Shown: positions 25,761 through 64,000 of the stretch, piece after piece | Layout: every line of letters starts with the position of its first letter | How positions within the stretch are numbered: the first letter of the stretch is position 1 | Made by a program: the position numbers and the translations under genes | Assembly: GCA_029779535.1 (NCBI GenBank) | Contig: JAKPAG010000117.1 | Coordinates: 1,818-65,817, forward strand | Origin: Pseudomonadota bacterium | GTDB lineage: Bacteria > Pseudomonadota > Alphaproteobacteria > Sphingomonadales > Sphingomonadaceae | Direction of reading: 5' to 3' | Length of the DNA stretch: 64,000 nt | The notes under the pieces: generated by a model | Told to the model about the DNA's origin: nothing | Seen by the model: the letters and a program-made list of their open reading frames with translations, nothing else | Databases searched by the model: none

Positions 25761-25841
25761 GATCGTGCCCCTGTGCCCCCTGCGCGATTCGCCGCCGGGA
25801 TGCCTGTTTTGAGCCCTATTGGCAGCGCGGGGTAAGGCGTC

Positions 25842-25857
25842 TGTGCGAAATTCCACA
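25842..25857. promoter_or_regulatory. Second CRP-like site, upstream of the DyP-P450 gene
   Basis: TGTGC-GAAATT-CCACA, within the palindrome CTGTG-N8-CACAG; two mismatches from the CRP consensus. Confidence 0.45.
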
Positions 25858-25887
25858 GTGGCGCCGAATTTTTGTGCTTGCATTATT

Positions 25888-43294: not shown

Positions 43295-43322
43295 TGTCGT
43301 TCCTCTCACTGCGTGACATCTC

Positions 43323-43341
43323 TAAATCAATTGGATAATGC
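43323..43341. promoter_or_regulatory. 19-bp operator in the MFS/tetR divergent promoter, repeated at 62167-62185
   Basis: TAAATCAATTGGATAATGC versus TAAATCATTTGGATAATGC (18 of 19 identical); pseudo-palindrome centred on CAATTG. Confidence 0.6.
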
Positions 43342-48336: not shown

Positions 48337-49836
48337 TCAGATGTCGTTGCGGATCCAGACGCTCTTGGTCTGGAGGTAGCTTTCGATGTGCTCGAAACCG
48401 CCCTCGCGCCCGACGCCGCTCAGCTTGTAGCCGCCGAACGGCACCGCCGGGTCCATGGTGTGGTAATGGTTGACCCACAGGGTCCCGGCCTTGATCGCCT
48501 TGACCGCGCGCATCGCCTTGCCGATGTCCTGGGTCCAGACCGCGCCGGCCAGGCCAAAGCGGGTGTCGTTGGCGCGGGCAATCACTTCGTCAAAGCTGTC
48601 GAACGGCATCACGCAGGCGACGGGGCCGAAGATCTCCTCCTTCGCGATCCGCATTCCGTCCTGCACCTGCCCAAAGATCGTCGGCGCGACGTAATAGCCA
48701 TCGGCCATGTAGCCTTCGGTCAGCGGCGCACCGCCAAGGTGGACGCTGGCCCCTTCCCGCGGGCCGAGGTCGAGGTAGGAGCAGACCCGTTCAAACTGGC
48801 GGGCCGAGACGATCGGGCCGATCTGGGTGGCCGGATCGAGCGAGTGGCCAACCACCATGCCCTGCGCGAATTCACGCATCCGGGCGACGAATTCGTCATG
48901 GATCGGGCGTTCGACATAGATTCGCGAGCCAGCCGAGCAGACCTGGCCCGAATTGTTGAAGATCGCCGAAGCCGCCGTCGGCACCGCGACGTCGAGGTTG
49001 GCATCGGCAAAGATGATGTTGGGCGACTTGCCGCCCAGTTCCATCGTCACCTTCTTCACCGTCGGCGCCGCGGCGGCGATGATCTTCTGCCCGGTGGCGG
49101 ACGATCCGGTGAAGGTGATCTTGTCGATGTCCGGGTGGGCCGAAATCGCCGCGCCAACTTCACCGTGGCCGGTCACCACGTTGACCACGCCGGCGGGGAA
49201 GCCCGCTTCCATGCACAGTTCGGCAAAGCGCAGCGGGGTGAGCGAGCCATGCTCGCTGGGCTTGATCACCACGGTGCAGCCGGCGGCCAGCGCGGGCCCG
49301 CATTTCCACGCGGCGCAGAAGATCGGCCCGTTCCACGGCATGATCACGCCGACCACGCCAACCGGTTCGCGCATGACCAGCGCGGTCAGGTCAACCGGCG
49401 AGCTGTTGCCCGGGGTATAGCCGTGGATGGTGGTTGCCAGGCCCGCGTGATGGCGCAGCGCGCGCACGATGATATCGCCCACCATCCGCGACGGGGTGAT
49501 CGGACGGCCCATTTCCATGGTGTCGACCAGCGCGATGTCGGCGAATTCGGCTTCGAGCAGGTCCGCCAGCTTCAGCAGTACGCGCTGGCGCTGGGCCGGG
49601 GTGAACTTGCTCCACGGCCCTTCGAAGGCGGCGCGGGCCGCGGCTACGGCGCGGTCCACGTCGGCGGCGCTGCCTTCCGCGATCTGGGCAAAGGCCTGGC
49701 CGGTCGACGGGTTGATCGCGTCGAACCATTCGCCCGAGGCCGGTTCGACCGCCTGGCCATTGATGAAGTGCACATTGCGCTGCCGATACTGCGGCGGCAG
49801 CACGGCGGGGACAAGGTTGGTGGCGGGGGCATTCAT
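48337..49836 (-). CDS. NAD(P)+-dependent aldehyde dehydrogenase
   Basis: PWNGP, FTGS, MELGGKSP, FNNSGQVCSAGS and EEIFGPV motifs. Confidence 0.92.
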   Translation of the reverse strand: MNAPATNLVPAVLPPQYRQRNVHFINGQAVEPASGEWFDAINPSTGQAFAQIAEGSAADVDRAVAAARAAFEGPWSKFTPAQRQRVLLKLADLLEAEFADIALVDTMEMGRPITPSRMVGDIIVRALRHHAGLATTIHGYTPGNSSPVDLTALVMREPVGVVGVIMPWNGPIFCAAWKCGPALAAGCTVVIKPSEHGSLTPLRFAELCMEAGFPAGVVNVVTGHGEVGAAISAHPDIDKITFTGSSATGQKIIAAAAPTVKKVTMELGGKSPNIIFADANLDVAVPTAASAIFNNSGQVCSAGSRIYVERPIHDEFVARMREFAQGMVVGHSLDPATQIGPIVSARQFERVCSYLDLGPREGASVHLGGAPLTEGYMADGYYVAPTIFGQVQDGMRIAKEEIFGPVACVMPFDSFDEVIARANDTRFGLAGAVWTQDIGKAMRAVKAIKAGTLWVNHYHTMDPAVPFGGYKLSGVGREGGFEHIESYLQTKSVWIRNDI

Positions 49837-49840
49837 GGGT

Positions 49841-51160
49841 TCAGTTCTCCGGTTTGTCGACCAGGCGGCGCATGTCGGCCCGGCCCAGCGCCATCAGGAT
49901 GGCGGAAATGGTAATCACGCTGGCGACAAGCACGATCAGCGAGGTGCCCAGCCGCATCGGATCGCCCAGCACCTTGTCGGTCACGAAACCGACCATCGAG
50001 TTGCCCAGCACCATACCGATCAGCCCGGTTACCAGCACGAAGATGGCCGAAACGCGGCCACGCAGCGCGGGCGGGGTGACGATCTGCGATGCGGCCGGCC
50101 CCATCGACGCGGCCGACATGACCAGCAGCATGTAGCAGCCGAACAGCACCACGGTCAGCCAGGGGCTGGACACCAGGTAGGCGGCGATCGCGAAGGGCGC
50201 GGCCAGCACCATGGTAACCAGGCACCACAGCAGATGGGCATCCTTGCGCCCCTTGCTGAACATCCGGTCCACCATCTTGCCGTGGAACGGCAGGCTGAGC
50301 GCGGGCACCATCTGCGCCACGCCCATCGCCAGGCCGATCTGCGCCGGGGTCCAGCCGTAGATGCGGGTCAGGTAGGCGGGGGTCCACAGCTGGAGGCCGA
50401 TGGTCACCGTATAGACCAGCCCGATTCCCAGGATGATTGCACTGAAGGCGCGCGGGTGCGCCAGGATGAAGCGCAGCGCCTCGCCGTATCCGCCCCCGTC
50501 CCGGGTCGGTGCGGGCGCGCGGTGGCGCTTGGGCTCGGGAAACAGGAACACCAGGAAGGCGGTCAGCACGCCGGGAATGCCGGTGACCAGGAAGGCCTGC
50601 TGCCACGGCGCAAAGCCCGACATGCCGGGCCAGTGCGAGATCGCCCCGTCCAGCACCGCGCCGACCAGCGGTCCGCCCAGCAGGAAGGTGATCCCCGCCC
50701 CCATCACCCCGCCCATGACGAAGATCGACATGGCAAAGGACAATTTGTTCGGCGGGAAGCTGTCGCCAATGATCGAATAGGCCCCGGTGGTGTAACCGGA
50801 TTCCCCGGCGCCAACCAGCGCGCGGGCGGCAATCAGCGCGCCGAAGGTGCCGGCCAGGCCGCAGCCCGCCGCGCCCAGGCTCCACACCACGACGCACAGG
50901 AACAGCACCCAGCGGCGGCTCTTGCGATCAAGCGCCAGCCCCACGGGAATCGCGCAGATCGAATAGAGCACGGCAAAGGCCAGCCCTTGCAGCAGGCTCA
51001 TCTGGAAATCGCTCAGCCCCAGGTCGCGCTTGATCGGTTCGACCATCAGGGCAACCAGATAGCGATCCGCCAGGCTGCGGATGTACAGCAGGAACAGGAT
51101 CGCCACGGTCAGCCAGGCGACCAGCGGGCGGGGATAGGTGTGGGCCGTCGATTGGGTCAT
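49841..51160 (-). CDS. MFS transporter (ACS/Spinster-like)
   Basis: LADR..VALMVEPIKRDLGLSDFQMSLLQG, ALDRKSRR and ARALVGAGES motifs. Confidence 0.85.
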   Translation of the reverse strand: MTQSTAHTYPRPLVAWLTVAILFLLYIRSLADRYLVALMVEPIKRDLGLSDFQMSLLQGLAFAVLYSICAIPVGLALDRKSRRWVLFLCVVVWSLGAAGCGLAGTFGALIAARALVGAGESGYTTGAYSIIGDSFPPNKLSFAMSIFVMGGVMGAGITFLLGGPLVGAVLDGAISHWPGMSGFAPWQQAFLVTGIPGVLTAFLVFLFPEPKRHRAPAPTRDGGGYGEALRFILAHPRAFSAIILGIGLVYTVTIGLQLWTPAYLTRIYGWTPAQIGLAMGVAQMVPALSLPFHGKMVDRMFSKGRKDAHLLWCLVTMVLAAPFAIAAYLVSSPWLTVVLFGCYMLLVMSAASMGPAASQIVTPPALRGRVSAIFVLVTGLIGMVLGNSMVGFVTDKVLGDPMRLGTSLIVLVASVITISAILMALGRADMRRLVDKPEN

Positions 51161-51801
51161 TTGCGGCTAGCCTCCGCGCGTTCGGGATCGAATTTCGGGC
51201 GTTCCAGCGCGAACTGGTCAGTCCCGCGCGCATACCAGCCGGCGCCGTGCGTGCGCCCGACCAGCCCCATTGCCGGGGTGTCGAGATAGAACTTGTCCGG
51301 ATCGGTAACGAACTGGTCCTGGATATGGGTCATCAGCACTTCACCGATCAGCACGGTCTGCAGGCTGCCGATGTCCAGCGCGGTCACCTTGCGGCATTCG
51401 AAGCTGACCGGAGCCGTGGCGATGCGCGGCGGCTGCACCACGCTGCTGGGCGTGGTCTGGATCCCGGCATAGTCGATCTCGCTGACATCGGCCGGGGCAT
51501 CGACGCTCGACAGGTTCATCGCCGGGGCGTCGGCCTCGCTGACCAGGTTGACCACGAATTCGCCGGTTTCGATGATGTTGCGCGCCGTATCCTTGAGCGC
51601 GCGGGTGCGAAAGTCCTTGAGCAGGCCCAGCACCACCAGCGGCGGCTCGATCCCGCAGACGTTGAAGAAGCTGTAGGGCGCGGCATTGACCAGCCCGGTC
51701 CCGTTCACGGTGGTTACCCAGGCGATCGGACGCGGAGTGACCGTGGAATTGAGCAGCTTGTAACGCGCCCCCAGCGGCAGCGCGCGCATATCGAATTGCA
51801 T
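51157..51801 (-). CDS. Flavin reductase (DIM6/NTAB) family protein
   Basis: PRPIAWVTT...VNAAPYSFFN and KDTARNI..TGEFVVN motifs. Confidence 0.85.
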   Translation of the reverse strand: MQFDMRALPLGARYKLLNSTVTPRPIAWVTTVNGTGLVNAAPYSFFNVCGIEPPLVVLGLLKDFRTRALKDTARNIIETGEFVVNLVSEADAPAMNLSSVDAPADVSEIDYAGIQTTPSSVVQPPRIATAPVSFECRKVTALDIGSLQTVLIGEVLMTHIQDQFVTDPDKFYLDTPAMGLVGRTHGAGWYARGTDQFALERPKFDPERAEASRK

Positions 51802-52598
51802 CAGGCCTGGTCCTTTTTGGCGGCGGAGCGGGCGATGAACCCTTCGCGCGCGCGGCGCGCCTCGTCGCCCGATTGCAGCTGGTGGCAGAAGGCCAGTTCA
51901 AGCCCCAGCGCCGTTTCAAGGCTGCCTTCGTCGCTGGCGTGGATCAGCCGCTTGGTCAGCTCGCTGGCGTGGCGGTTGCCGCCGCCGATGCTGCGGGCAA
52001 AGTCCAGCGCGGCGTCGATCACCTCGGCATCGGGCACCAGCTTGCTGACCAGGCCAAGGGCCTGGGCTTCGGCTGCCGGGACCGTGCGGCCGGAATAGAC
52101 GATCTCGGAAGCGCGGCGGCGGCCGATCTGGCGGGTCAGGAACCAGGCCACCCCGCCGTCCGGGGCCAGCCCGAACTTGAGGAACGGCGCGCCAAAGCTG
52201 GCGCCCTCACCCGCGATCAGCACGTCGCAGGCGAGCGCCAGCCCCCACGAGACGCCCCAGGCGCCGCCTTGGACCGCGGCGATGGTCGGCACCGGCAGGG
52301 CGGCCAGGCGGCGGATGCAGCGCTGGCCCAGTTCGAGCCGGGCAGCCAGGTTGAGCGCCCCTTCCCCGCGCGCGGGCGGGTTCTTCACGTCCCCGCCGCT
52401 GGAGAAGTAGCCGCCCGCGCCCCGGATCACCAGGGCACGCGGCGGGGTGCCCGCCTCGACCTCGGTCAGCAGCTGGGCAAAGGCTTCCCACATCCCGAAG
52501 GACACCGTGTTCTTCGCCTGCGGGCGGTTGAGCGTGACGACGACAATATCGCCGTCCAGCCGCTCAACCAGCAGGTCTGCCGTGCTCTCCCCGCTCAT
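51801..52598 (-). CDS. Enoyl-CoA hydratase/isomerase family protein
   Basis: TLNRPQAKN, YFSSGGDV, PTIAAVQGGAWG and GLAPDGG motifs. Confidence 0.85.
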   Translation of the reverse strand: MSGESTADLLVERLDGDIVVVTLNRPQAKNTVSFGMWEAFAQLLTEVEAGTPPRALVIRGAGGYFSSGGDVKNPPARGEGALNLAARLELGQRCIRRLAALPVPTIAAVQGGAWGVSWGLALACDVLIAGEGASFGAPFLKFGLAPDGGVAWFLTRQIGRRRASEIVYSGRTVPAAEAQALGLVSKLVPDAEVIDAALDFARSIGGGNRHASELTKRLIHASDEGSLETALGLELAFCHQLQSGDEARRAREGFIARSAAKKDQA

Positions 52599-52601
52599 GC
52601 C

Positions 52602-54656
52602 TTACTTCTTCGGCATGGTTTCGCGCGCACGCTGGCGGATGTAGTGGCGCAGACCGTCGATTTCGGCGTCGGACAGGTTGTCGAACTTGCCCATGCCGCG
52701 CTCCATCAGCGCGCCGCCGCGGACCACCGCGTTAAACGCGTCGGCATCCAGCGGGATCTGCGACTTGCGCAGGTCCGGCGCCGCACCGCCCGAAATCACG
52801 CCGCCGCCGTGGCAGACCACGCAGGTGGTGCCATAGATGCCCGCACCCAGCGCGACCTTCTGCGCATCGACCGCAAAGGCCGGATCGTCCAGCACCGGTT
52901 CTTCGACGCGGGTGAACTTGGGCAGGCGGGCCTTGCCGCCCAGCATGAAGGTCAGCACGCGGCGCTTCTGCTGGCGGTAGTCCCAGTTGGGCTGGTTGGC
53001 GAAGCTGGCCCGGAAGCTGGCGATCACGGTGACGTATTGCTTGCCGTTCACGGTGTAGCTGATCGGCGCCGAAAGGATCCCGTTCTGCGCGTCAAAGCTC
53101 CACAGCTTGGTCCCGTCCTTGGCGTTGTAGGCGGCAAAATCGCCGGTGTTCACGCCCTGGAACAGCAGGTTCCCGCCGGTTGCCAGCACCCCGCCGTTGA
53201 ACGTGCCGGGCTGCGGGATTTCCCAGACCTTCTTCTGGGTGACCGGATCATAGGCCAGCAGGAAGCTCTTCGAGGGCGGCACCACGATACCCGCCGGGGG
53301 CACGCCCAGCCCGCTGTTGATGAACATCCCGTCGCGCACCTGCCAGGTGTCGATGTTGGCCGGATCGGTGTGGACCCGCCCGCCTTCCATCACCGGGATA
53401 TAGGTCAGCCCGGTCTGTTCGCTATGGGCCATGGCCTGGACCCCGTGCGCCCCGTTCGGGAAGGGATAGAGGACGAACGGCTTGCCCTTGTAGAACGCCT
53501 CGGGGTTGTGGACCGGGCGGCCGGTTTCCTTGTCGATCCGCTCGGCCCAGTTGACCTGGGCGAACTTCTCGGCCGACAGCAGTTTGCCGGTGGCGCGGTC
53601 GATCACATAATAGAAGCCGTTCTTGGGCGCGTGCAGCAGCACGTCGCGCTTCTGGCCGTCGATGGTCAGCTCGGTCAGCTCGATGTCCATCGCATTGTTG
53701 AAGTCCCAGGTGTTCTCCGGGTTGGTCTGGTAATGCCAGGCGCGCTTGCCGGTCTTCATGTCGATCGCGACGACCGACGACAGGTAAAGGTTGTCGCCGC
53801 CGCCGGGCGAACGGATCTTCTGGTTCCAGGGGAAGCCGTTGCCGGTGCCCAGGTAGATCCGGTCATACTTCGCGTCATAGGTCATGGCCTGGTAGACCGC
53901 CCCGCCGCCGCCGAACTTCCACCATTCGCCGGTCCAGGTCTTGGCCGCTTCCAGCGTGGTTTCGTCCTTGTCGACCGCCGGGTTGCCCGGGACCACGTAC
54001 CAGCGCCAGGCGCGCTTGCCGGTCTTGATGTCATAGGCCGTGACGTAGCCGCGCACCTTGGAATAGTCCGCGCCGCCGAAGCCGATCACCACCTTGTCCC
54101 CGGCGACGAACGGCGGGCCAGTGATATAGGCGCCGTGCGAGCCGGGCTCGTCCAGGGTCTTGACGCTCCAGCGCAGCTTGCCGGTCTTGGCGTCAACCGC
54201 GATCAGACGGCCTTCGCGCGTGGCGGTGAACACCATGCCATCGCGGTAGGCGATGCCGCGAATGCCCCAGCCGGCGCGCATCCGCCAGCCGGCTTCGGGC
54301 GCTTCGGCAACCTTGGGATCGTACTGCCACAGCAGCTTGCCGGTGCGCGCGTCGAGCGCGTGGATCACCGAATGGCCGACCGCGAAATAGATCACCCCGT
54401 TCACCGCCAGCGGGGCGGTATAGGCATCGAAGGTGTCGATGTCATAGGCCCAGGCCAGGCCCAGCTGGCTGACGTTGGAATCATTGATCTGCGCCAACGC
54501 GCTATAATGGCCGCCGTTGTCAGTGCCGCCGAAGCTGTACCAGTCACGCCCTTCGACCAGGCCCGCGCCCGGTGCGCCGATCCCCGGCTGAGCCGAACCC
54601 AGCGCCAGCGCGACGATCCCTGCGGCCAGCGCCGCCACTTTCCGATTCTTGCCCAT
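52602..54656 (-). CDS. Quinohemoprotein (PQQ beta-propeller + cytochrome c) dehydrogenase
   Basis: Sec signal, W-motif propeller repeats, WDFN, HAPKNGFYY and CVVCH heme c motif. Confidence 0.88.
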   Translation of the reverse strand: MGKNRKVAALAAGIVALALGSAQPGIGAPGAGLVEGRDWYSFGGTDNGGHYSALAQINDSNVSQLGLAWAYDIDTFDAYTAPLAVNGVIYFAVGHSVIHALDARTGKLLWQYDPKVAEAPEAGWRMRAGWGIRGIAYRDGMVFTATREGRLIAVDAKTGKLRWSVKTLDEPGSHGAYITGPPFVAGDKVVIGFGGADYSKVRGYVTAYDIKTGKRAWRWYVVPGNPAVDKDETTLEAAKTWTGEWWKFGGGGAVYQAMTYDAKYDRIYLGTGNGFPWNQKIRSPGGGDNLYLSSVVAIDMKTGKRAWHYQTNPENTWDFNNAMDIELTELTIDGQKRDVLLHAPKNGFYYVIDRATGKLLSAEKFAQVNWAERIDKETGRPVHNPEAFYKGKPFVLYPFPNGAHGVQAMAHSEQTGLTYIPVMEGGRVHTDPANIDTWQVRDGMFINSGLGVPPAGIVVPPSKSFLLAYDPVTQKKVWEIPQPGTFNGGVLATGGNLLFQGVNTGDFAAYNAKDGTKLWSFDAQNGILSAPISYTVNGKQYVTVIASFRASFANQPNWDYRQQKRRVLTFMLGGKARLPKFTRVEEPVLDDPAFAVDAQKVALGAGIYGTTCVVCHGGGVISGGAAPDLRKSQIPLDADAFNAVVRGGALMERGMGKFDNLSDAEIDGLRHYIRQRARETMPKK

Positions 54657-54706
54657 TCAGCCTGTTCCCAATGGTTGGGCGCCGGATTCGCTCCGCCACC
54701 TGATAG

Positions 54707-54722
54707 TTGCACTTTGTTGCAG
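54707..54722. promoter_or_regulatory. YTGCA-N6-TGCAR operator between PQQ dehydrogenase 1 and the SnoaL gene
   Basis: TTGCA-CTTTGT-TGCAG. Confidence 0.6.
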
Positions 54723-54806
54723 TTTTCGCGTGAAGTCAACGAAGCCGGGTGCTATGTCCGACAGCCTTGCACAAGGACCCGGAAGGGCCACTCGGAAAGG
54801 ATTGCC

Positions 54807-55442
54807 ATGACTGGATTGAACCGCCGCGATGCCTTGACCGCCGCCGCGCTGACGGGCGGGCTTGCCCTGGCCGCCGCGCCTGCCGCCGCCGCGCCGAAAG
54901 CGCGCAAGCCCACCGCCGCGCAGCAGCTCGACATGCTGGTTTCGCGCGCGGAGATCGAGGAAGTGCTTTATGCCTATGCCCGCGGCAACGACCACGGCGA
55001 CGATGCGATGATCCGCGGCTGCTTCTGGCCCGAATCCCAGCACAAGCATGGCCGCTTCGAAGGCTCGTCTAGCGATTTCGTCGGCTTCGCGATGAAAGTC
55101 GGCAACACGCTGAAGTACAGCAAGCACCACATCAGCAACGTGTCGATCCGCATCGACGGCGACCGCGCGTTCAGCGAATGCTATTACAACGCCCACCACC
55201 GCCGCCCCGACAAGGCCGGCACGGGCGAGGAAGACCAGTGGTTCGAAGGCCGCTACATCGACCTGTGGGAACGGCGCGGCGGCACCTGGAAAATCATCTT
55301 CCGGCGCGGCACCACCGATTTCAATGCGCCGGTCACCCCGGCCGAAGCGCCCTATGCCGCGCTTCCCGCCGGCAGCCACGCCGAGCGCAGCAAGGACGAC
55401 GCCTACTACACCATGCTGGCCCGGTTCGAAGCCGGCAAATAG
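54807..55442 (+). CDS. Tat-exported NTF2/SnoaL-like protein
   Basis: MTGLNRRDAL twin-arginine signal; IEEVLYAYARGND..D, KHHISNV and GRYIDLWERRGGTWKI. Hidden at the end of a 1189 aa shadow ORF. Confidence 0.8.
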   Translation: MTGLNRRDALTAAALTGGLALAAAPAAAAPKARKPTAAQQLDMLVSRAEIEEVLYAYARGNDHGDDAMIRGCFWPESQHKHGRFEGSSSDFVGFAMKVGNTLKYSKHHISNVSIRIDGDRAFSECYYNAHHRRPDKAGTGEEDQWFEGRYIDLWERRGGTWKIIFRRGTTDFNAPVTPAEAPYAALPAGSHAERSKDDAYYTMLARFEAGK

Positions 55443-55478
55443 GCTGACGTCAGCCAAGGGCGCGCTGGACGACAAGGG

Positions 55479-57551
55479 CTATTGCCCCTTGTCGTCCACG
55501 GGCACCACGGGCTTGGTCGCAGCCGCCACTTCGCGCGCGCGGCTGCGCAGGTAGTGCGCGATTCCCGCCAGCGTGCGCTCATCCACTTCGCCAAAGGCCG
55601 GCATCCCCCGGCTGAGCAGCGGCCCTTCCTTGACCAGCTGGGTGAAAGTGGGGACATCCAGCGGCACGAGCGAACGCAGCAGGTCCGGCGCGCTGCCGCC
55701 CGATGCGGCATTGGCCCCGTGGCAGCCGGCACAGCGATCGGCGTAAGCCTCGGCCCCCAGCCTGACCAGTGCCGGATCGACCCGGAACTTCGGATCGTCG
55801 GGAATGGTCAGGTCAGGCTTCTGCGCGGGCGGCAACTTGTCGGTCCCGCCCAGGGCAAAGGCCAGCACGCGCCACTGCTGGGTGCGATAATTCCATTCCC
55901 CGCCCGGCAAACCCTGCGCGGTGGCAAAGCGTGATCCGGCGACCACCGCGATATATTGCTTGCCCCCGGCGCGGTAGGTGATCGGCTGGGCCATGACCGC
56001 GGTCTGTGCGTCGAACTGCCACAGCAGCTTGCCGCTGTTCGCGTCGAGCACGGTAAATTCGCCCGAACCCCGCCCTTGCAGCAGCAGGCCTCCGCCGGTC
56101 GTGGCGGTGCCGCCGCCGCCGCGCGGGCCGATCATCGGGATGCGCCAGGCCTCGCTTTGCGTCCTGGGGTTCCAGGCCAGCAGGAACGAAGTGGGCGCGC
56201 GCGGCTTGAGATCGGGCGGGGGCGTTCCCTGCCCGTTCGAGATGCGCTGGCCGTCCTTGTATTTCCAGTCCGACAGCTTGCCGGGCGGATCGACATAGAC
56301 CCGGCCCTGGTCCATCGCCGGGATGTAGACCAGCCCCGAGGCCGGGTTGTAGCTCATAGCCTCGATGTTGTGCGCCCCGAACGGCGAGGGATAGACGATC
56401 GCCGCCTTGCCGCCGGGATAGCGCGCCTCGGGGTTTTCGACCGGGCGGCCGGTCTTGAGGTCGATCGAGCTGGCCCAGGTGGTCGGCACGAACGGCTTGG
56501 CCGAGAGCAGCTTGCCGTCCTTGCGGTCGATCACATAGAAAAAACCGTTCTTCGGCGCGTTCATCAGCACGTCGTGCTTCTGCCCGTTCACGTCGAAGCC
56601 ATCGACCAGTTCGATGTCCATGTCGGCGTTGAAGTCCCAGCTCTCGCCGGGGTTCACCTGGTAGTGCCACAGGTACTTGCCGGTATCGGCATCCAGCGCG
56701 ACGATCGAACAGACGAACAGGTTGTCGCCGCCGCCGGGCGAGCGGATCTTGTGGTTCCACGGGCTGCCGTTGCCGGTGCCGATGTAGAGCCGGTTGTATT
56801 TCGGATCATAGGCCATGGCGTTCCACACCGTGGCCCCGCCACCGAACTTCCACCATTCGCCGGTCCAGGTCTTGGCGGCCATCTTCATGGCCTCGTCCTC
56901 GAACCCTTTCGCCGGATCGCCGGGCGTGGTGTAGAACCGCCACGCCTGCTTGCCACTGGCCTGGTCATAGGCGGTGACATAGCCGCGGACCGGGGCATAG
57001 TCCGCCCCGCCGTGGCCGATCACCACCTTGTCGCCGTAAACCCATGGCGCGCCGGTGATATAGCGCTGGTCACCCGGCGTGGTGGTCTGCGCCGACCAGA
57101 CTTCCTTGCCGCTTTTCGCGTCGATCGCGATCAGCCGCCCATCAAGCGTGCCGGTGAATACCTTGCCGTTCGCATAGGCGATGCCGCGGCTGCCCCAGGC
57201 TCCGCGCAGCGTCACCCCGGCGCGTTCGCGGGTGTGGCTGTCAAAGTCCCACAGTTGCTTGCCGGTGGCGGCGTCGAGCGCGAAGACATGGCTGTCCCCG
57301 GCCGCGTAATAGAGCACCCCGTCCACCGCGACCGGCGCGGTCAGGCTTTGCCCGCCAACGTCGATGTCGTGGTGCCAGGCCAGGCCAAGCTGGCCCGCAT
57401 TGCCGGTGTTGATTTCGGCAAGCGGGCTGAAATGGGTGGTGTCCGGACCGTCATAATCGGGCCAGTCATCATTCTGCGCCCCGCCCTGCCCGCAAGCGGC
57501 CAGGGCCAGCGCCAGGGCACCGATCGCGAAATTCCGCAGCATTCCAGTCAT
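55479..57551 (-). CDS. Quinohemoprotein (PQQ + heme c) dehydrogenase, lipoprotein
   Basis: Lipobox LAAC, WDFN, NAPKNGFFY and CAGCH motifs. Confidence 0.88.
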   Translation of the reverse strand: MTGMLRNFAIGALALALAACGQGGAQNDDWPDYDGPDTTHFSPLAEINTGNAGQLGLAWHHDIDVGGQSLTAPVAVDGVLYYAAGDSHVFALDAATGKQLWDFDSHTRERAGVTLRGAWGSRGIAYANGKVFTGTLDGRLIAIDAKSGKEVWSAQTTTPGDQRYITGAPWVYGDKVVIGHGGADYAPVRGYVTAYDQASGKQAWRFYTTPGDPAKGFEDEAMKMAAKTWTGEWWKFGGGATVWNAMAYDPKYNRLYIGTGNGSPWNHKIRSPGGGDNLFVCSIVALDADTGKYLWHYQVNPGESWDFNADMDIELVDGFDVNGQKHDVLMNAPKNGFFYVIDRKDGKLLSAKPFVPTTWASSIDLKTGRPVENPEARYPGGKAAIVYPSPFGAHNIEAMSYNPASGLVYIPAMDQGRVYVDPPGKLSDWKYKDGQRISNGQGTPPPDLKPRAPTSFLLAWNPRTQSEAWRIPMIGPRGGGGTATTGGGLLLQGRGSGEFTVLDANSGKLLWQFDAQTAVMAQPITYRAGGKQYIAVVAGSRFATAQGLPGGEWNYRTQQWRVLAFALGGTDKLPPAQKPDLTIPDDPKFRVDPALVRLGAEAYADRCAGCHGANAASGGSAPDLLRSLVPLDVPTFTQLVKEGPLLSRGMPAFGEVDERTLAGIAHYLRSRAREVAAATKPVVPVDDKGQ

Positions 57552-57579: not shown

Positions 57580-59115
57580 TTATCCCCCGATCGTGCGGTC
57601 GCTCGGCCAATAGCGCGCGCGCAGGGTCTTCTTGTTGATCTTGCCCATCGCATTGCGGCCGATGTCGTCGACGAAATCGTAGCTGCGCGGGCACTTGAAC
57701 CCGGCCAGGCTGGCGCGGCAGAACGCGTTCAGTTCCTCGGCGCTCGGCGGGTTGGCCGGATCGCGCGGGATCACCAGCGCTTTCACTTCCTCGCCCATTT
57801 CGGCATTCGGCGCGGCCAGCACCGCCACGTCGGCAACGCCGGGATGGCGCAGCAGCACCTGCTCGCTTTCGGCCGGGTAGATGTTCACCCCGCCCGAAAC
57901 AATCATGTCGGACACGCGGTCGGTGATGAACAGGTAGCCGTCTGCATCGACATAGCCAACCTCGCCCAGGGTGAACACGCCCGGCGCGATGTGCGCGGCG
58001 GCGGTCTTTTCCGGATCGCCGGCATAGATGATCCCGCGCCCGGTGCTATCGCGGAAATAGACCTGGCCTTCCTGGTTGGGGCCCAGTTCCTGACCATCGG
58101 GGCCGATGATCACAGTGGTAAAGGGCGGCAGCGCCTTGCCCACCGAGCCCGGCCGTTCCAGCCATTCGGGCGAAGTGATGAAGGTGGCCGATCCCGCCTC
58201 GGTCCCGCCATAGGCTTCGACCAGCACCGGACCGAACCATTCGATCATCGCCTTCTTGACCTCGCGCGGGCAGGCCGCACCAGTGTGGGCAAGCCGCTGC
58301 ATCGAGGAGACGTCGTACCTGGCCCGGACCTCCTCCGGCAGCGACAGGAAGCGCTGGAAGTGGGTCGGGACCATGACCGATCCCTTGACCTGGTACTTTT
58401 CGATCGCCGCCAGCGCGGCTTCGGGATCGAAATGGCCCATCACGACCAGCGCGGTGCCGGCAAACACGTTGCGCGCCATGCCCAGCGGGCCGGTGTGATA
58501 GAGCGGGCCGACCGCCAGCCCCGGCGAGGGGGTCGCCTTGGGGCGGACGATGTCCGCGAATTCGCGGATCGTCGCGGCTTCGGGGAAATATTGCGGCGGG
58601 GTCTCGGTCGCCTTGGGCTTGCCGGTGGTGCCCGAGGTGTAGTGCAGGTGCGGCAGCGGCTTCACATTGGCGTCCGGCTCTGCATCCGAAGCGGTGGCCA
58701 GCCAGTCGTCCCACGCGGTGACGCCCTCGGTCGGCGGGCAGCGCCAGCCGACCACGGTCTTAACCCCCACTTCGCGCGCGGCTTCCAGCCCGGCGGCCAG
58801 CGTTTCCGGGCCGATGAACAGCACCGAAGCGCCCGAATCCTGCAGGATGTAGACCAGTTCGCCTGCGGTCAGGTGATAGCTGACCGGCACGGTCGACACG
58901 CCCGCTTCCAGCCCCGCCAGATAGGCGATCACCGTTTCGGCGGCATTGGGCGCGAAGACGGCGGCGCGGCGCGTGACATCAACCGCCGCGCCAAGGGCAT
59001 TGGCTGCGCGGTTGAGCACCGGATCGAGCTGGTTCCAGCTCAGCTCGATCCGCTCGTCCGCCAGCGCCAGGCTGTCACGCTTGTCAGCCGGAACTGAAAG
59101 CAGCGTCTGGCTCAT
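57580..59115 (-). CDS. Acyl-CoA synthetase (AMP-forming)
   Basis: YTSGTTGKPK, EAYGGTE and DRVSDMIVSGGVNIYPAE motifs. Confidence 0.88.
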   Translation of the reverse strand: MSQTLLSVPADKRDSLALADERIELSWNQLDPVLNRAANALGAAVDVTRRAAVFAPNAAETVIAYLAGLEAGVSTVPVSYHLTAGELVYILQDSGASVLFIGPETLAAGLEAAREVGVKTVVGWRCPPTEGVTAWDDWLATASDAEPDANVKPLPHLHYTSGTTGKPKATETPPQYFPEAATIREFADIVRPKATPSPGLAVGPLYHTGPLGMARNVFAGTALVVMGHFDPEAALAAIEKYQVKGSVMVPTHFQRFLSLPEEVRARYDVSSMQRLAHTGAACPREVKKAMIEWFGPVLVEAYGGTEAGSATFITSPEWLERPGSVGKALPPFTTVIIGPDGQELGPNQEGQVYFRDSTGRGIIYAGDPEKTAAAHIAPGVFTLGEVGYVDADGYLFITDRVSDMIVSGGVNIYPAESEQVLLRHPGVADVAVLAAPNAEMGEEVKALVIPRDPANPPSAEELNAFCRASLAGFKCPRSYDFVDDIGRNAMGKINKKTLRARYWPSDRTIGG

Positions 59116-60341
59116 CAGATCGCCTCCGGAATGCGGGCGGCCGAAACCAGCTTGGCCAGCTGGCTCATGTGCACTTCATCCGGGCCATCGGCCATGCGCA
59201 GGTAGCGCGCGGTACCGAAGATCGTGGCGAGCGGGAAGTCGCGGCTGAAGCCGATCGCGCCGTGGACCTGCATGGCGCGGTCGGCGACGGTCTGGGCCAT
59301 CTGCGGGGCGACGATCTTGATCGCGGCGATCAGGTCCTTGGCCACCTTGTTGCCATAGCGGTCCATCGCGTCGGCCGCCTTGAGCGTGAGCAGGCGGGCC
59401 TGCTCGATCTCGCAGAAGCTCTTGGCGATGTCCTGGCGCACGCTGCCATGATCGAACAGCTTGCGGCCGAAGGCAACGCGCTGGTCCGCGCGCTTGCACA
59501 TCAGGTCAAGCGCGCGCTGCGCCATGCCGACGATGCGCATGCAGTGGTGGATGCGGCCCGGCCCGAGGCGGCCCTGCGCGATCTCGAACCCGCGCCCTTC
59601 GCCCAGCAGCAGGTTTTCCTTGGGCACGCGCACGTTGGTGAACTGGATTTCGCAGTGGCCACCGGGCGAATGCAGCGCTTCCAGCACGTGCAGCGGACGG
59701 ATGATCTCGATCCCCGGCGTGTTCGCGGGAATGATCACCTGGCTGTGCTGCTGGTGCTTCGGCTTGTCCGGATTGGGGGTTCGGCCGAGCAGGATGTAGA
59801 CCTTGCAGCGCGGGTCCATCGCGCTCGAAATCCACCACTTGCGCCCGTTGATGACATAGTCGTCACCGTCCGCCACGATCGAGCATTCGATATTGGTCGC
59901 GTCCGACGAGGCGACGCCGGGTTCGGTCATCACGTAGGCCGAACGGATTTCACCATTGAGCAGCGGCTTCAGCCACTTTTCCTGCTGGTCCGGCGTGCCG
60001 TACTTCGCCAGGATTTCCATGTTGCCGGTGTCGGGCGCCGCGCAGTTGAAATATTCGGACGCGCCCAGCACCCGGCCCATCAGTTCGGCCAGCGGGGCAT
60101 ATTCAAGGTTGGTCAGCCCCGGCGACCATTCGCCGTATTCGTGCGGCAGGAACAGGTTCCACAGGCCCAGTTCGCGGGCCTTTTCCTTGAGCTTCTCGGT
60201 GCCCGGCCAGGGCTGCCACAGGGTGGCGGGATCATGCAGGAAGTGGTCGCGCTCTTCCTCGATCGGGAAGACGTATTCCTTCATGAAGCCGTCGACGCGT
60301 TCGCGCAGGTCCTGAACCTTGGCGCTGTACTGGAAATCCAT
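59115..60341 (-). CDS. Acyl-CoA dehydrogenase, ACAD10/11-LvaC type
   Basis: LWNLFLP, LTNLEYAPLAE, FNCAAPDTGNME, AQGRLGPGRIHHCMR and ADGPDEVH motifs. Confidence 0.88.
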   Translation of the reverse strand: MDFQYSAKVQDLRERVDGFMKEYVFPIEEERDHFLHDPATLWQPWPGTEKLKEKARELGLWNLFLPHEYGEWSPGLTNLEYAPLAELMGRVLGASEYFNCAAPDTGNMEILAKYGTPDQQEKWLKPLLNGEIRSAYVMTEPGVASSDATNIECSIVADGDDYVINGRKWWISSAMDPRCKVYILLGRTPNPDKPKHQQHSQVIIPANTPGIEIIRPLHVLEALHSPGGHCEIQFTNVRVPKENLLLGEGRGFEIAQGRLGPGRIHHCMRIVGMAQRALDLMCKRADQRVAFGRKLFDHGSVRQDIAKSFCEIEQARLLTLKAADAMDRYGNKVAKDLIAAIKIVAPQMAQTVADRAMQVHGAIGFSRDFPLATIFGTARYLRMADGPDEVHMSQLAKLVSAARIPEAI

Positions 60342-60356
60342 GGAAATCTTCTCCTG

Positions 60357-61100
60357 TCAGAGGGTCACGCCGCCATCGACCACAAGGGTCTGGCCGACGA
60401 TGAATGCGGAAAGCGGCGAGGCGAGGAACAGCGCCGCGCCAGCCATGTCTTCGACCGTGCCAAAGCGGCCGAGCGGGATCTTGGCGAGCGAGCGTGCACG
60501 CCGTTCGGCATTGTCCATCGTCACCTTGGTCATCTTGGTATCGACCAGGCTGGGGGCGATGCCATTGACGCGGATGCCCTGCCCGGCCCAGGCCTGGCCC
60601 AGCGTGCGAACCAGCTGCACCGCGCCGGCCTTGGACGCGGCATAGGCCGGATTGCCCATGGTCGAGCGGAACGCCCCGATCGAGCTGATCACGATGATCG
60701 ATCCCTGCACGGCGGCCAGATCGGCGTGGAACCGCTCGGAAATCTGCATCACGCTGGCAAGGTTGACCGCGACGACCTTGGCAAAGCCTTCGGGCGCGAA
60801 TTCCTGGCGCTTGTACAGCACCATGCCCTGCGAATGGACCAGCACGTCCAGACCATCGGCAAAGGGGGCCGGGGCCGCCGCGATCGATTCCGGATTGCCG
60901 CAATCAACCTGGGTGTAACCGATGCCGGTCAGGTCCGAACCTTCTTCGGCGGAATAGTCCGCCGCGCTGGCGCGGGTGCCCCAGACATGGACCTGCGCGC
61001 CGCGCACGCGGAACGCATGGGCGATGCCATTGCCGATCCCGCTCGATCCGCCGACGACAAGCACGCGCTTGCCGGTGAAATCCAATTCGTTTCCGTTCAC
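60357..61100 (-). CDS. Short-chain dehydrogenase/reductase
   Basis: GGSSGIG, YAASK and IRVNGIAPS motifs; GTG overlaps the APH stop. Confidence 0.88.
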   Translation of the reverse strand: MNGNELDFTGKRVLVVGGSSGIGNGIAHAFRVRGAQVHVWGTRASAADYSAEEGSDLTGIGYTQVDCGNPESIAAAPAPFADGLDVLVHSQGMVLYKRQEFAPEGFAKVVAVNLASVMQISERFHADLAAVQGSIIVISSIGAFRSTMGNPAYAASKAGAVQLVRTLGQAWAGQGIRVNGIAPSLVDTKMTKVTMDNAERRARSLAKIPLGRFGTVEDMAGAALFLASPLSAFIVGQTLVVDGGVTL

Positions 61101-62143
61101 AAAACCCCCTCTGCAATCCATTTGCGCGCGCGCTCCAGCAGCCAGACGGCCCGGGCGTGCAGCTTGTCTCCGGTTTCCTTGGGCGCCTTGCCGGCACAGG
61201 CCCGCGCGTGGGTGCCTTCCAGCAGGATGCCCAGCTTGTAGCAGGCGAACACCCCGTACCAGCCGACCGCGTCCAGCGAGCGGGCGGAGCGCGCCGCATA
61301 GTGCGCGACCAGTTCCGCCGCGCTGGGAAAGCCGATCCACGGCGTGACCGACGTGATCGAACTGTCCGAACCGTCGGGCCAGGTTGCCAGCAGCCAGCCC
61401 AGGTCAACCAGCGGATCGCCCAGCGTTGCCAGTTCCCAATCGACGATCGCGGCCAGTTCGGGCGCATCGCTGCGAAACATCACATTGGCGAGGTGATAGT
61501 CGCCGTGCAGGATGCCCGGCACGAACGACGCGGGGCGATTGGCATCAAGCCATTGCCCTACCGCGCGCACATCGCCCAGCTCGCCGGGTCCCGGCCAGCC
61601 GACCAGTTCAGCATAGGAATCGAGCTGCGCCTGCCAGCGGCCAACCTGCCGTTCAAGAAAGCCTTCGACCTTGCCGAACCCGTCCAGCCCCAGCGCGAAC
61701 GGATCGAGCGCGTGCAGCGCGGCCAGTCCTTCGACCATCGACAGGCCCATGCGGTGCTGCGCCTGGGCCGTGCAATGCGAATCGGGCAGGCCCGAAGTGG
61801 CGTTGAACCCCTCGATCGGCTCCATCAGGTAGAAGGCCGCGCCCAGCACGTCCTCTGCCCCGCAGGCCGCGATCAGCGCGGGGTGCGGCACGGCGCTGCC
61901 GGCCAGCGCGCCCAGCAGCCGCGCTTCGCGCCGCATCGTTTCGTTGCTGCCAGCACGCAGGTGCGGCGGCGGGCGGCGCAGGACATAGTCGCGCCCCGCG
62001 CGGGTAAAGCGCAGCAGCACGTTCTGCGTGCCGCCAGCCAGCTCGCGCACCTGTTCGATCGGCCCCGAACCCAGCCCCTGGCCGTCCATCCAGCCGGCCA
62101 GTACTACCAGGTCGACGCCTGCCACTTGCACACTCTCACCCAT
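61097..62143 (-). CDS. APH-family phosphotransferase, ACAD10/11 kinase-LvaA type
   Basis: GGTQN, YVLRRPP, LHGDYHLAN and DWELATLGDPLVDLG motifs. Confidence 0.85.
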   Translation of the reverse strand: MGESVQVAGVDLVVLAGWMDGQGLGSGPIEQVRELAGGTQNVLLRFTRAGRDYVLRRPPPHLRAGSNETMRREARLLGALAGSAVPHPALIAACGAEDVLGAAFYLMEPIEGFNATSGLPDSHCTAQAQHRMGLSMVEGLAALHALDPFALGLDGFGKVEGFLERQVGRWQAQLDSYAELVGWPGPGELGDVRAVGQWLDANRPASFVPGILHGDYHLANVMFRSDAPELAAIVDWELATLGDPLVDLGWLLATWPDGSDSSITSVTPWIGFPSAAELVAHYAARSARSLDAVGWYGVFACYKLGILLEGTHARACAGKAPKETGDKLHARAVWLLERARKWIAEGVL

Positions 62144-62166
62144 GAATCAGGAGCATCCTGCATTTT

Positions 62167-62212
62167 TAAATCATTTGGATAATGCACTTGACGATACTGC
62201 ATTGCAATGCAA
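62167..62212. promoter_or_regulatory. Dual operator region between the APH operon and fbiC
   Basis: TAAATCATTTGGATAATGC (62167-62185), TTGAC (62188-62192) and CTGCA-TTGCAA-TGCAA (62197-62212, containing the perfect palindrome TGCATTGCAATGCA). Confidence 0.6.
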
Positions 62213-62285
62213 TTTTTACAGGAACAATAAGTGCCATCGCCCGGCTCTTGCCGGGCCCTTGGAGAGGCTGGCAAAAGACCCGCGA

Positions 62286-64000
62286 ATGATTGCGAATCCG
62301 CCCCCCTTGCCCGCCCCCGAGGCGCATGCGCTGGTCGATGCACCGCTGCCCGGGCTGCTGACGCGTGCCGCAGCCGTGCGCGACAGCGCGTTCGGCGTGA
62401 ATCAGACCTGGTCGCCCAAGGTCTTCCTGCCGCTGACCCAGCTGTGCCGCGACCTGTGCCACTACTGCACCTTCTCGCGCCCGCGCCCCGGCCAGCGCGC
62501 CTACATGACGCCTGACGAGGTGCTGGAAGTGGCCCGCGCCGGCGCCGCCGCCGGCTGCACCGAAGCGCTGTTCACCCTGGGCGACAAGCCGGAACTGCGC
62601 TTTGCCCAGGCCCGGCGCGAGCTGGCCGAACTGGGCCATGCCACGACGCTCGACTATCTCGAGGCTATGTGCCGGCTGGTAATCAAGGAAACCGGCCTGA
62701 TCCCCCACGTCAACGCCGGGGTAATGGACGCGGCCGACATCGCCCGGCTGCGCCGGGTTTCAGCCTCGCAGGGGCTGATGCTGGAAACGGTGGCTGACCG
62801 GCTGGGGGAAAAAGGCGGAGCGCATTACCGCTCGCCCGACAAGGTGCCAGCCGTGCGGCTGGCCACGATCCGCGCGGCTGGTGAACTTAAAGTGCCTTTC
62901 ACCACCGGCATCCTGATCGGCATCGGCGAAACCCGCGCCGAACGGATCGATGCGCTGCTGGCAATCCGCGAGCTGCACGCCGAATACGGCCACATTGCCG
63001 AAGTGATCGTCCAGAACTTCCGCGCCAAGTCGCGCACGCCGATGGCCGATGCGGACGAACCGGACATGGACGACCTACTGTGGACCATCGCCGCGGCGCG
63101 CCTGATCCTGCCGCCGGATGTCACCGTGCAGGCCCCGCCGAACCTGGCCGACGCGATGTTCCCGCGCCTGATGGACGCCGGGATCAACGACTGGGGCGGG
63201 ATCAGTCCGGTCACCCCCGATCACGTCAATCCCGAACGCCCCTGGCCCGCCGTGGACAAGCTGCGCGCCGCGACCGAGGCCGCCGGCCGCCGGCTGGTGG
63301 CGCGCCTGCCGGTCTATCCCGGCTGGACCGGCCCGGACTGGCAGGACGCCGCGATCCTGCCGCTGATTGCCGCCAGCAGCGACGCCGAACACTATGCCCG
63401 CGCCGATGCCTGGTCCCCCGGCCTGCCGCTGCCGCCCCAGCCGGAACCGTCACGCGGCGCCTGTTCGCCCCACATCGCCCGCCTGATCGAACGCGCGCAG
63501 GCCGGCGAAGCGCTGGACGAGGATGACATCGTCGCCCTGTTCGCGGCGCGCGGACCGGACGTCGAACACGTCTGCGCCGGGGCCGACGCGCTGCGCCGCG
63601 CCACCCGGGGCGACGAAGTGACTTTCGTCGTCAACCGCAACATCAACTATACCAACATCTGCGCCCACGCCTGCGGGTTCTGCGCCTTTTCCAAGGGGCG
63701 CGGGGCCGACAACCTGCGCGGCAAGCCCTATGACCTCGACCTGTCCGAAGTCGCCCGCCGCGCCCACGAGGCCGTGGCCCGGGGCGGGACCGAAGTGTGC
63801 ATGCAGGGCGGGATCCATCCGGCCTACACCGGCGAAACTTACCTCAAGCTGCTCGGCGCGGTGAAGGCGGCGGAGCCGGGCCTCCACATCCATGCCTTCA
63901 GCCCGCTGGAAGTGCGGCACGGCGCCGAAACGCTCGGCCTTAGCCTCGCAGATTACCTGACCCGGCTCAAGGCGGCGGGGCTGGGCTCGCTGCCCGGCAC
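62286..64000 (+). CDS. fbiC: Bifunctional FO synthase (CofG-CofH fusion), runs off the window end
   Basis: Own translation: SPKVFLPLTQLCRDLCHYC (CofG radical SAM), LFTLGDKPE, DAGINDWGGISPVTPDHVNPE, then in the same frame VNRNINYTNICAHACGFCAFSKG (CofH). Absent from the track because no stop codon lies inside the window. Confidence 0.9.
   Translation, partial: MIANPPPLPAPEAHALVDAPLPGLLTRAAAVRDSAFGVNQTWSPKVFLPLTQLCRDLCHYCTFSRPRPGQRAYMTPDEVLEVARAGAAAGCTEALFTLGDKPELRFAQARRELAELGHATTLDYLEAMCRLVIKETGLIPHVNAGVMDAADIARLRRVSASQGLMLETVADRLGEKGGAHYRSPDKVPAVRLATIRAAGELKVPFTTGILIGIGETRAERIDALLAIRELHAEYGHIAEVIVQNFRAKSRTPMADADEPDMDDLLWTIAAARLILPPDVTVQAPPNLADAMFPRLMDAGINDWGGISPVTPDHVNPERPWPAVDKLRAATEAAGRRLVARLPVYPGWTGPDWQDAAILPLIAASSDAEHYARADAWSPGLPLPPQPEPSRGACSPHIARLIERAQAGEALDEDDIVALFAARGPDVEHVCAGADALRRATRGDEVTFVVNRNINYTNICAHACGFCAFSKGRGADNLRGKPYDLDLSEVARRAHEAVARGGTEVCMQGGIHPAYTGETYLKLLGAVKAAEPGLHIHAFSPLEVRHGAETLGLSLADYLTRLKAAGLGSLPG

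Follow-up and report, generated by a model that had tools for sequence, protein, structure and literature searches.

A sphingomonad kinase-dehydrogenase operon that probably follows the LvaB-free, ACAD10/11-type route for 4-oxo- and 4-hydroxy-acids

The stretch of DNA analysed here, hereafter the window, comprises 64 kb of a sphingomonad genome (contig C79, positions 1818-65817; the genome has 3.36 Mb in 130 contigs) and has a G+C content of 64-71%. On its minus strand it carries genes for an APH-family kinase, a short-chain dehydrogenase/reductase (SDR), an acyl-CoA dehydrogenase (ACAD) and a coenzyme A (CoA) ligase, followed by a quinohemoprotein alcohol dehydrogenase. We consider it likely that this operon encodes a route of the type known from mammalian ACAD10 and ACAD11, by which 4-oxo- and 4-hydroxy-acids would be brought into beta-oxidation via a phosphorylated intermediate. 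The route would operate without LvaB, a component of the lvaABCDE operon of Pseudomonas putida, and the operon contains no orthologue of the lva genes.

Five minus-strand genes form the operon

An earlier note on this DNA, made from the sequence alone, had described the kinase, SDR, ACAD and ligase genes as tightly coupled and followed by a quinohemoprotein gene. All five were confirmed at the following positions:

61097..62143, minus strand: APH-family kinase, 348 aa (PF01636, E 1.8e-42)
60357..61100, minus strand: SDR, 247 aa (adh_short_C2, E 1.1e-49)
59115..60341, minus strand: three-domain ACAD of the ACAD10/11 type, 408 aa (match to mouse ACAD11, E 1.6e-133)
57580..59115, minus strand: AMP-forming acyl-CoA ligase, 511 aa (AMP-binding, E 3e-51)
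55479..57551, minus strand: type II quinohemoprotein alcohol dehydrogenase, a lipoprotein, 690 aa (pyrroloquinoline quinone and cytochrome c domains)

The TGA stop codon of the kinase gene and the GTG start codon of the SDR gene overlap as GTGA, with the Shine-Dalgarno sequence GAGGGGG upstream of the SDR start, so that no space is left for a same-strand gene between them, as the earlier note had also claimed. A 15-nucleotide spacer containing AGGAG lies between the SDR stop and the ACAD start, the ACAD stop and the ATG of the ligase overlap as TGATG, and 28 nucleotides with the ribosome-binding site GGGGAGAG separate the ligase stop from the quinohemoprotein ATG at 57551. Thus, the kinase, SDR, ACAD and ligase genes form a real, translationally coupled operon in which the quinohemoprotein gene is the last; the operon ends at a convergent SnoaL_4 gene on the plus strand.

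Some of the starts deserve comment. The kinase may start up to 18 codons later, as annotated in one relative. An SDR open reading frame listed from 61340 (327 aa) was rejected in favor of the GTG at 61100, which is coupled to the kinase stop. Likewise, the start at 57653 of a 724-aa quinohemoprotein reading frame was rejected, since the ATG at 57551 has both a ribosome-binding site and a lipobox (LAAC).

The acyl-CoA dehydrogenase carries all residues that define the ACAD10/11 type

The ACAD matched mouse ACAD11 (PDB 8v3u) over its full length with approximately 60% identity and 449 bits. In the comparison with solved structures the next unrelated ACAD reached 154 bits, which places the window enzyme closest to ACAD10/11. 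This type is defined by the catalytic aspartate D753, the HCMR motif (H634, R637), R626 and R631 (Rashan et al. 2025, PMC12440821), and the phosphate-handling residues, R/HCMR together with the aspartate, have no part in the mechanism of ordinary ACADs (PMC12440821). The motif QGRLGPGRIHHCMR of the window ACAD is identical to mouse ACAD11 over this stretch and retains the equivalents of R626, R631 and H634-C-M-R637. Its sequence MADGPDEVH aligns with LADGPDEVH of 8v3u, indicating that the catalytic aspartate is kept and that glutamate is not used; the position of D753 was fixed by means of the D753N mutant structure, 8v3v. We therefore predict, from these residues, that the enzyme eliminates phosphate from 4-phosphoacyl-CoAs.

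The genome encodes three ACADs of this type, the other two being paralogues with 71% and 54% identity to that of the window (C98:38711-39898 and C63:76214-77437). An LvaC-type ACAD is encoded at C56:31263-32378 with no kinase gene adjoining.

Among ACADs linked to kinases we distinguished four motif classes: the ACAD10/11 type (HHCMR and Asp); the LvaC type (THCMRWLG and Asp); a class with HHAMR and Asp, which adjoins window-type kinases in Pseudomonas and in which the key Arg, His, Arg and Asp are still in place; and a class in which the base is Glu and the HCMR motif is absent, which adjoins kinase-DUF6285 pairs. This survey drew on loci L033, L035, L038 and L039 (Pseudomonas-like), L043, L045 and L049, and on contig C83 of the genome itself.

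The kinase retains catalytic and CoA-contact residues

Alignment to 8v3v showed that the kinase keeps the catalytic HGD..N motif (D220, N225) as LHGDYHLANV and the DWE metal motif as VDWELATLGDP. Equivalents of the CoA-contact arginines R86 and R176 are also kept, its RRE and ERQV aligning with IDRE and KRQV of ACAD11; the one-residue offset in this numbering was derived manually. Together with the residues of the ACAD, these features bear out the phosphorylative 4-hydroxyacyl-CoA logic that had been suggested for the operon, and the kinase is predicted to be a 4-hydroxyacyl-CoA kinase on this basis.

The genome has eight APH-family kinases. Against the ACAD11 kinase domain, the window kinase scored 92 bits (E 4.6e-25) and LvaA 59 bits, while 238 bits were obtained for a kinase encoded on contig C63, approximately 1.1 kb from another ACAD10/11-type ACAD; the C63 kinase is the genome's true orthologue of the ACAD11 kinase. 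Close homologues of the window kinase came chiefly from metagenome-assembled genomes of Novosphingobium and Sphingobium (Sphingomonadales). Its best match among solved structures was PDB 9o56 (137 bits), which is presumably the C. thermarum ACAD10-kinase homologue of the preprint PMC13596139.

The kinase belongs to a separate clade and is often paired with the SDR

A maximum-likelihood tree was built from 34 kinases, leaving out the Burkholderia pseudomallei, C. thermarum and mammalian sequences. Four clades are relevant here, and they are given with their support and with the presence of DUF6285, the Pfam family of LvaB (see below):

Window-type kinases: 11 members, support 94/99, DUF6285 in none
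ACAD11-like kinases, including the C63 kinase: 10 members, support 90/93, DUF6285 in none
LvaA kinases: 4 members, support 100/100, DUF6285 in all
A second group of DUF6285-linked kinases: 5 members, support 85/98, DUF6285 in all

The window kinase fell outside the ACAD11-like clade and did not group with the ACAD10/11-kinase orthologues. Window-type kinases are paired with ACAD10/11-type ACADs at loci L020, L021 and L023 and on plasmids of Sulfitobacter and Sphingomonas, and the adjacency of kinase and ACAD is kept across alpha- and gammaproteobacteria.

Similarly, orthologues of the SDR (48-86% identity) adjoin at least 6 of the 11 sampled window-type kinases, that of the window included. 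They were found at L061 and L064, on the Sphingomonas plasmid, on the Sulfitobacter plasmid, where the order kinase-SDR-ACAD is the same as in the window, at the gammaproteobacterial locus L023 and at Pseudomonas loci. At one Pseudomonas locus (L038) the SDR adjoining the kinase is only 37% identical to that of the window. The ACAD flanked by the window-type kinase and SDR in Pseudomonas is of the HHAMR/Asp class. By analogy with LvaD, we infer that the SDR is a 4-oxoacyl-CoA reductase that feeds the pathway. Relative L063 lacks the SDR gene and keeps all other genes of the cluster, which fits such a feeder role.

A proposed pathway and the evidence for and against it

In the pathway that we propose, the ligase would convert the acid to its acyl-CoA, as suggested by its family and context, and the SDR, judging from LvaD and from its conserved pairing with the kinase, would reduce a 4-oxoacyl-CoA to the 4-hydroxyacyl-CoA. 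Homology and the retained residues suggest that the kinase then phosphorylates the 4-hydroxyl group. The ACAD would eliminate the phosphate to yield a 2-enoyl-CoA, which is the best supported step given its similarity to ACAD11 and its complete set of defining residues, and an enoyl-CoA hydratase of the neighboring unit may hydrate this product. From gene context, the acids are probably formed outside the cytoplasm by two quinohemoprotein alcohol dehydrogenases and an aldehyde dehydrogenase and may be imported by a transporter of the major facilitator superfamily (MFS).

Several points weigh against this proposal. The roles of the SDR and the ligase are assigned solely from position, the function of the whole window-type kinase clade is a prediction, and the window kinase scores far below the C63 kinase of its own genome against the ACAD11 kinase domain. 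In addition, the proposal fixes a type of reaction and names no particular substrate or chain length. The earlier note's idea of a larger acyl chain, released when a ring or lactone is opened, is without specific support. Literature searches showed no link between such kinases and the catabolism of diols (1,4-butanediol) or 4-hydroxybutyrate, and those on DUF6285 and on 9O56 provided no support.

Finally, a preprint (PMC13596139) reports in vitro phosphorylation of 1-O-alkylglycerols by homologues of the ACAD10 kinase, several of them prokaryotic. The window kinase might thus act on a lipid alcohol that is not a CoA ester, a 1-O-alkyl- or acylglycerol, with the ACAD, SDR and ligase serving ordinary beta-oxidation. 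The top structural match of the kinase, 9o56, would agree with this if it is indeed the preprint's protein. We regard this explanation as unlikely. The ACADs to which the kinase is translationally coupled, and with which it co-occurs across the phylogeny, bear the R/HCMR residues and the aspartate base that ordinary ACADs do not employ, and the kinase itself has the CoA-contact arginines. That its gene is so closely linked to one for a phosphate-handling ACAD speaks in favor of an acyl-CoA as the substrate.

It is equally improbable, in our judgment, that the genes are neighbors without sharing a pathway, for example that the ACAD is served by the ACAD11-like C63 kinase and the kinase and SDR of the window act on some other metabolite. 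The presence of three ACAD10/11-type ACADs and eight APH kinases in one genome would allow for this, as would the different (HHAMR) ACAD class found beside the kinase and SDR in Pseudomonas. However, the genes of the window overlap or abut, the kinase and ACAD adjoin each other in two classes of proteobacteria, and the HHAMR enzymes retain Arg, His, Arg and Asp at the respective positions. The chemistry of the operon is most likely the known one, in which 4-hydroxyacyl-CoAs are phosphorylated and the phosphate is then eliminated.

None of the operon's genes is orthologous to lvaACDE

That the family DUF6285 (PF19802) often lies between kinases and ACADs of this kind was then tested. DUF6285 was found in 11 of 151 genomes of a Pseudomonas-like genus. 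Five of six loci fetched from these genomes had the same arrangement, with a divergent regulator of approximately 650 aa and genes for a kinase (352 aa), DUF6285 (118 aa), an ACAD (390 aa), an SDR (255 aa) and a ligase; the sixth (L059) was a variant. At locus L055, an exact match to LvaR-FP, a published primer for P. putida KT2440, was present at the 3' end of the regulator gene, and primer PlvaA-RP matched at 19 of 20 positions just upstream of the kinase gene (primers from Table S3, PMC8433446), the representative genome being one base off the printed PlvaA-RP sequence. These two primers anchor L055 as the lva operon. An exact scan of genome contigs with PlvaA-RP gave no match. At the Pseudomonas-like loci L011-L019, no lva genes were found beside the ACAD10/11-type matches, which stand alone.

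Compared with the L055 proteins, the window kinase is 29% identical to LvaA over 177 residues, the SDR 32% to LvaD, the ACAD 32% to LvaC (L055:8667-9839) and the ligase 28% to LvaE. The best Lva matches of the genome lie elsewhere: for LvaA a kinase on C83 (33%), for LvaC the C56 enzyme (55%), and for LvaD and LvaE genes on C61 and C57, respectively. The reciprocal search thus contradicts orthology of the operon with lvaA/C/D/E. That it might still be a true levulinate operon, one that merely lost lvaB, is made plausible by the four shared protein families and the overall logic, but we consider it very unlikely. Besides the low identities, its ACAD has the ACAD10/11 motif and not the LvaC-type RLxxARLTHCMRWLG, its kinase lies outside the fully supported LvaA clade, and its divergent gene is fbiC and not an LvaR-type sigma-54 activator, for which similar sequences occur on other contigs.

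The identity between LvaC and ACAD10/11 has been quoted as 56-62% (PMC11342911). Judged by bit scores against mouse ACAD11 (8v3u), 195 for LvaC and 449 for the window ACAD, LvaC seems more distant than these values suggest.

LvaB is DUF6285 and is generally absent from ACAD10/11-type modules

In P. putida, LvaB is a 12-kDa protein that binds LvaA, according to the account cited in PMC6692424. The LvaB protein of L055 (9893-10249) matched DUF6285 with 85 bits (E 4.8e-24; cut-off 28). LvaB is therefore a member of Pfam DUF6285, which is listed as a family of unknown function.

A six-frame hidden Markov model search of the whole sphingomonad genome for PF19802 gave nothing on the contig of the window and, as there is also no space between the kinase and SDR genes, the operon lacks LvaB, as the earlier note had supposed. 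The note had also called for a search of the genome for lvaB. A DUF6285 domain is indeed present elsewhere, the only one above threshold being at C83:10188-10400 (L067:7146-9056; E 1e-9), but it belongs to another module, in which it is fused in frame behind its own kinase and adjoins a Glu-base ACAD without the HCMR motif. Fusion of DUF6285 to the C-terminus of a kinase was found in three sampled genomes, this one included, and agrees with the reported interaction of LvaA and LvaB.

To see how general this state is, we used 401 evenly sampled Pseudomonadota genomes, with E <= 1e-90 as the threshold for ACAD10/11-type ACADs. (These counts include the unpublished genome G383, and those for the Pseudomonas-like genus include G496 and G546; no conclusion hinges on these three.) ACAD10/11-type ACADs were present in 106 and DUF6285 in 31 of the 401 genomes, and in none did matches to the two lie within 3 kb of each other, the nearest being 3.7-6.3 kb apart on opposite strands. 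Wherever a neighboring kinase could be identified, DUF6285 directly followed it or was fused to it, and the ACADs that flank DUF6285 loci were of the LvaC type (THCMRWLG, Asp) or the Glu type. In the 34-kinase tree, DUF6285 was confined to two clades other than that of the window kinase, and none of the 11 sampled window-type kinases had it as a neighbor. In vitro, the kinase of B. pseudomallei can stand in for the kinase domain of ACAD10 without a partner (PMC11342911), the Burkholderia and mammalian enzymes are active without LvaB (PMC11342911), and an lva-like cluster of Pseudomonas citronellolis without lvaB has been published (PMC6692424). Together, the survey, the tree and these reports show that independence of LvaB is an already known and common state. 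Hence, of the proposed "LvaB-independent variant," the absence of LvaB stands, but the operon is no special variant, since this absence is the rule for such modules.

Although the genome does contain a DUF6285 domain and LvaA and LvaB are cited as interacting in P. putida, we think it most improbable that the window kinase depends on the C83 domain in trans, in view of its fusion to a different kinase beside a Glu-type ACAD and the separation of DUF6285 from window-type kinases and ACAD10/11-type ACADs described above.

Relationship to known systems

The module belongs to the ACAD10/11-type family and has an lva-like set of accessory genes. It is not orthologous to lva, and its lack of LvaB does not make it a special variant. 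With mammalian ACAD10 and ACAD11 (PMC12440821; Paquay et al. 2024, PMC11342911) it shares an ACAD that is approximately 60% identical and complete in its phosphate-handling and catalytic residues, the fold, catalytic motifs and CoA-contact arginines of the kinase, and the lack of an LvaB-like partner. In contrast to the mammalian enzymes, the kinase and ACAD are separate proteins with the SDR gene between theirs, the module has a ligase and an SDR of its own, and the kinase belongs to a sister clade. The kinase (Q63VL0) and ACAD orthologue of B. pseudomallei (PMC11342911) likewise constitute a bacterial two-protein system that converts 4-hydroxyacyl-CoA to 2-enoyl-CoA without LvaB, but no coupling to an SDR or ligase is reported there; this likeness is one of published description.

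The likeness to lvaABCDE of P. putida KT2440 (Rand et al. 2017, as cited in PMC6692424 and PMC11342911) lies in the pathway logic and the four enzyme families. Relative to the operon as cited there, the window differs in its low identities of 28-32%, in kinase clade, ACAD class and gene order, and in having no LvaB (DUF6285), LvaR activator or LvaFG permease. The lva cluster of P. citronellolis LA18T (PMC6692424) also lacks lvaB, but it differs from the window operon in two respects: its kinase is homologous to LvaA (59% identity), and it has a histidine phosphatase gene adjoining.

The analysis would place a common bacterial kinase clade and its partner SDR, as far as their sequences tell, in the ACAD10/11-type phospho-elimination route. 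As DUF6285 is confined to particular kinase clades, its presence offers a simple annotation rule for telling lva-type from ACAD10/11-type modules. No new mechanism is revealed.

The gene neighborhood is conserved in relatives

Downstream of the operon lie the convergent SnoaL_4 gene and a further minus-strand unit (48337..54656), whose genes were assigned by Pfam matches:

54807..55442, plus strand: SnoaL_4 protein, 211 aa (PF13577, E 1.4e-17)
52602-54656, minus strand: second quinohemoprotein alcohol dehydrogenase
51801-52598, minus strand: enoyl-CoA hydratase
51157-51801, minus strand: flavin reductase
49841-51160, minus strand: MFS transporter
48337-49836, minus strand: aldehyde dehydrogenase

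In relatives whose kinases are 71-84% identical, the order kinase, (SDR), ACAD, ligase, quinohemoprotein is kept with SnoaL_4 on the opposite strand, and it continues with the second quinohemoprotein, enoyl-CoA hydratase, flavin reductase, MFS transporter, (aldehyde dehydrogenase) and a TetR gene. This recurrence argues against a chance juxtaposition. In relatives L061 and L064 the SnoaL_4 gene occupies the equivalent position between two quinohemoprotein genes. The SnoaL_4 protein has a twin-arginine signal (RRDAL). We discarded a 272-aa minus-strand reading frame at 54657-55475, which had no Pfam match, as a shadow of the SnoaL_4 gene. The nearest solved relative of the operon's quinohemoprotein is alcohol dehydrogenase IIB of P. 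putida HK5 (PDB 1kv9; 567 bits), and the NCBIfam models nearest to the ligase are PRK12406 and FadD4, both under cut-off.

The promoter region contains putative operators

62144..62285, no strand: divergent promoter/operator region between the kinase gene and fbiC, 142 nt (sequence read)

This intergenic region contains a perfect 14-bp palindrome, TGCATTGCAATGCA, at 62198-62211, which is conserved upstream of the kinase gene in relatives L061 (1 mismatch) and L064 (3 mismatches). It also contains a 19-mer at 62167-62185, of which the genome has a single other copy, matching at 18 of 19 positions (43323-43341) and located upstream of an MFS gene at 43309. From their sequence and placement, the palindrome and the 19-mer look like operators of a small regulon.

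A broader reading can be put forward only tentatively, and we hold it to be rather doubtful. The window-type kinase and its orthologous SDR would be a widespread, uncharacterised duo for 4-oxo-acids, situated here in a conserved supra-operon that oxidises gamma-hydroxy or gamma-keto alcohols and 1,4-diols, by means of the periplasmic quinohemoprotein alcohol dehydrogenases and the aldehyde dehydrogenase, to acids that enter beta-oxidation by phospho-elimination. A single operator would serve this supra-operon, a second transporter locus and F420 biosynthesis.

The gene divergent from the operon, fbiC (window 62286-64000), encodes a fused CofG/CofH protein. In relative L061 (4466-9812), fbiC is followed by cofC, cofD, an F420 ligase gene and an F420-oxidoreductase gene. 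Adjacency of F420 synthesis to a sphingomonad catabolic cluster is unusual.

Two further reading frames of the window were recorded, both on the minus strand. One, at 129-1571, encodes a second APH-family kinase (PF01636, E 8e-18) that is very distant from that of the operon. The other, at 21594-25883 (1429 aa), has coding-like G+C at third codon positions, and its only match, a weak one, is to the C-terminal part of Dyp-peroxidase (E 1e-4).

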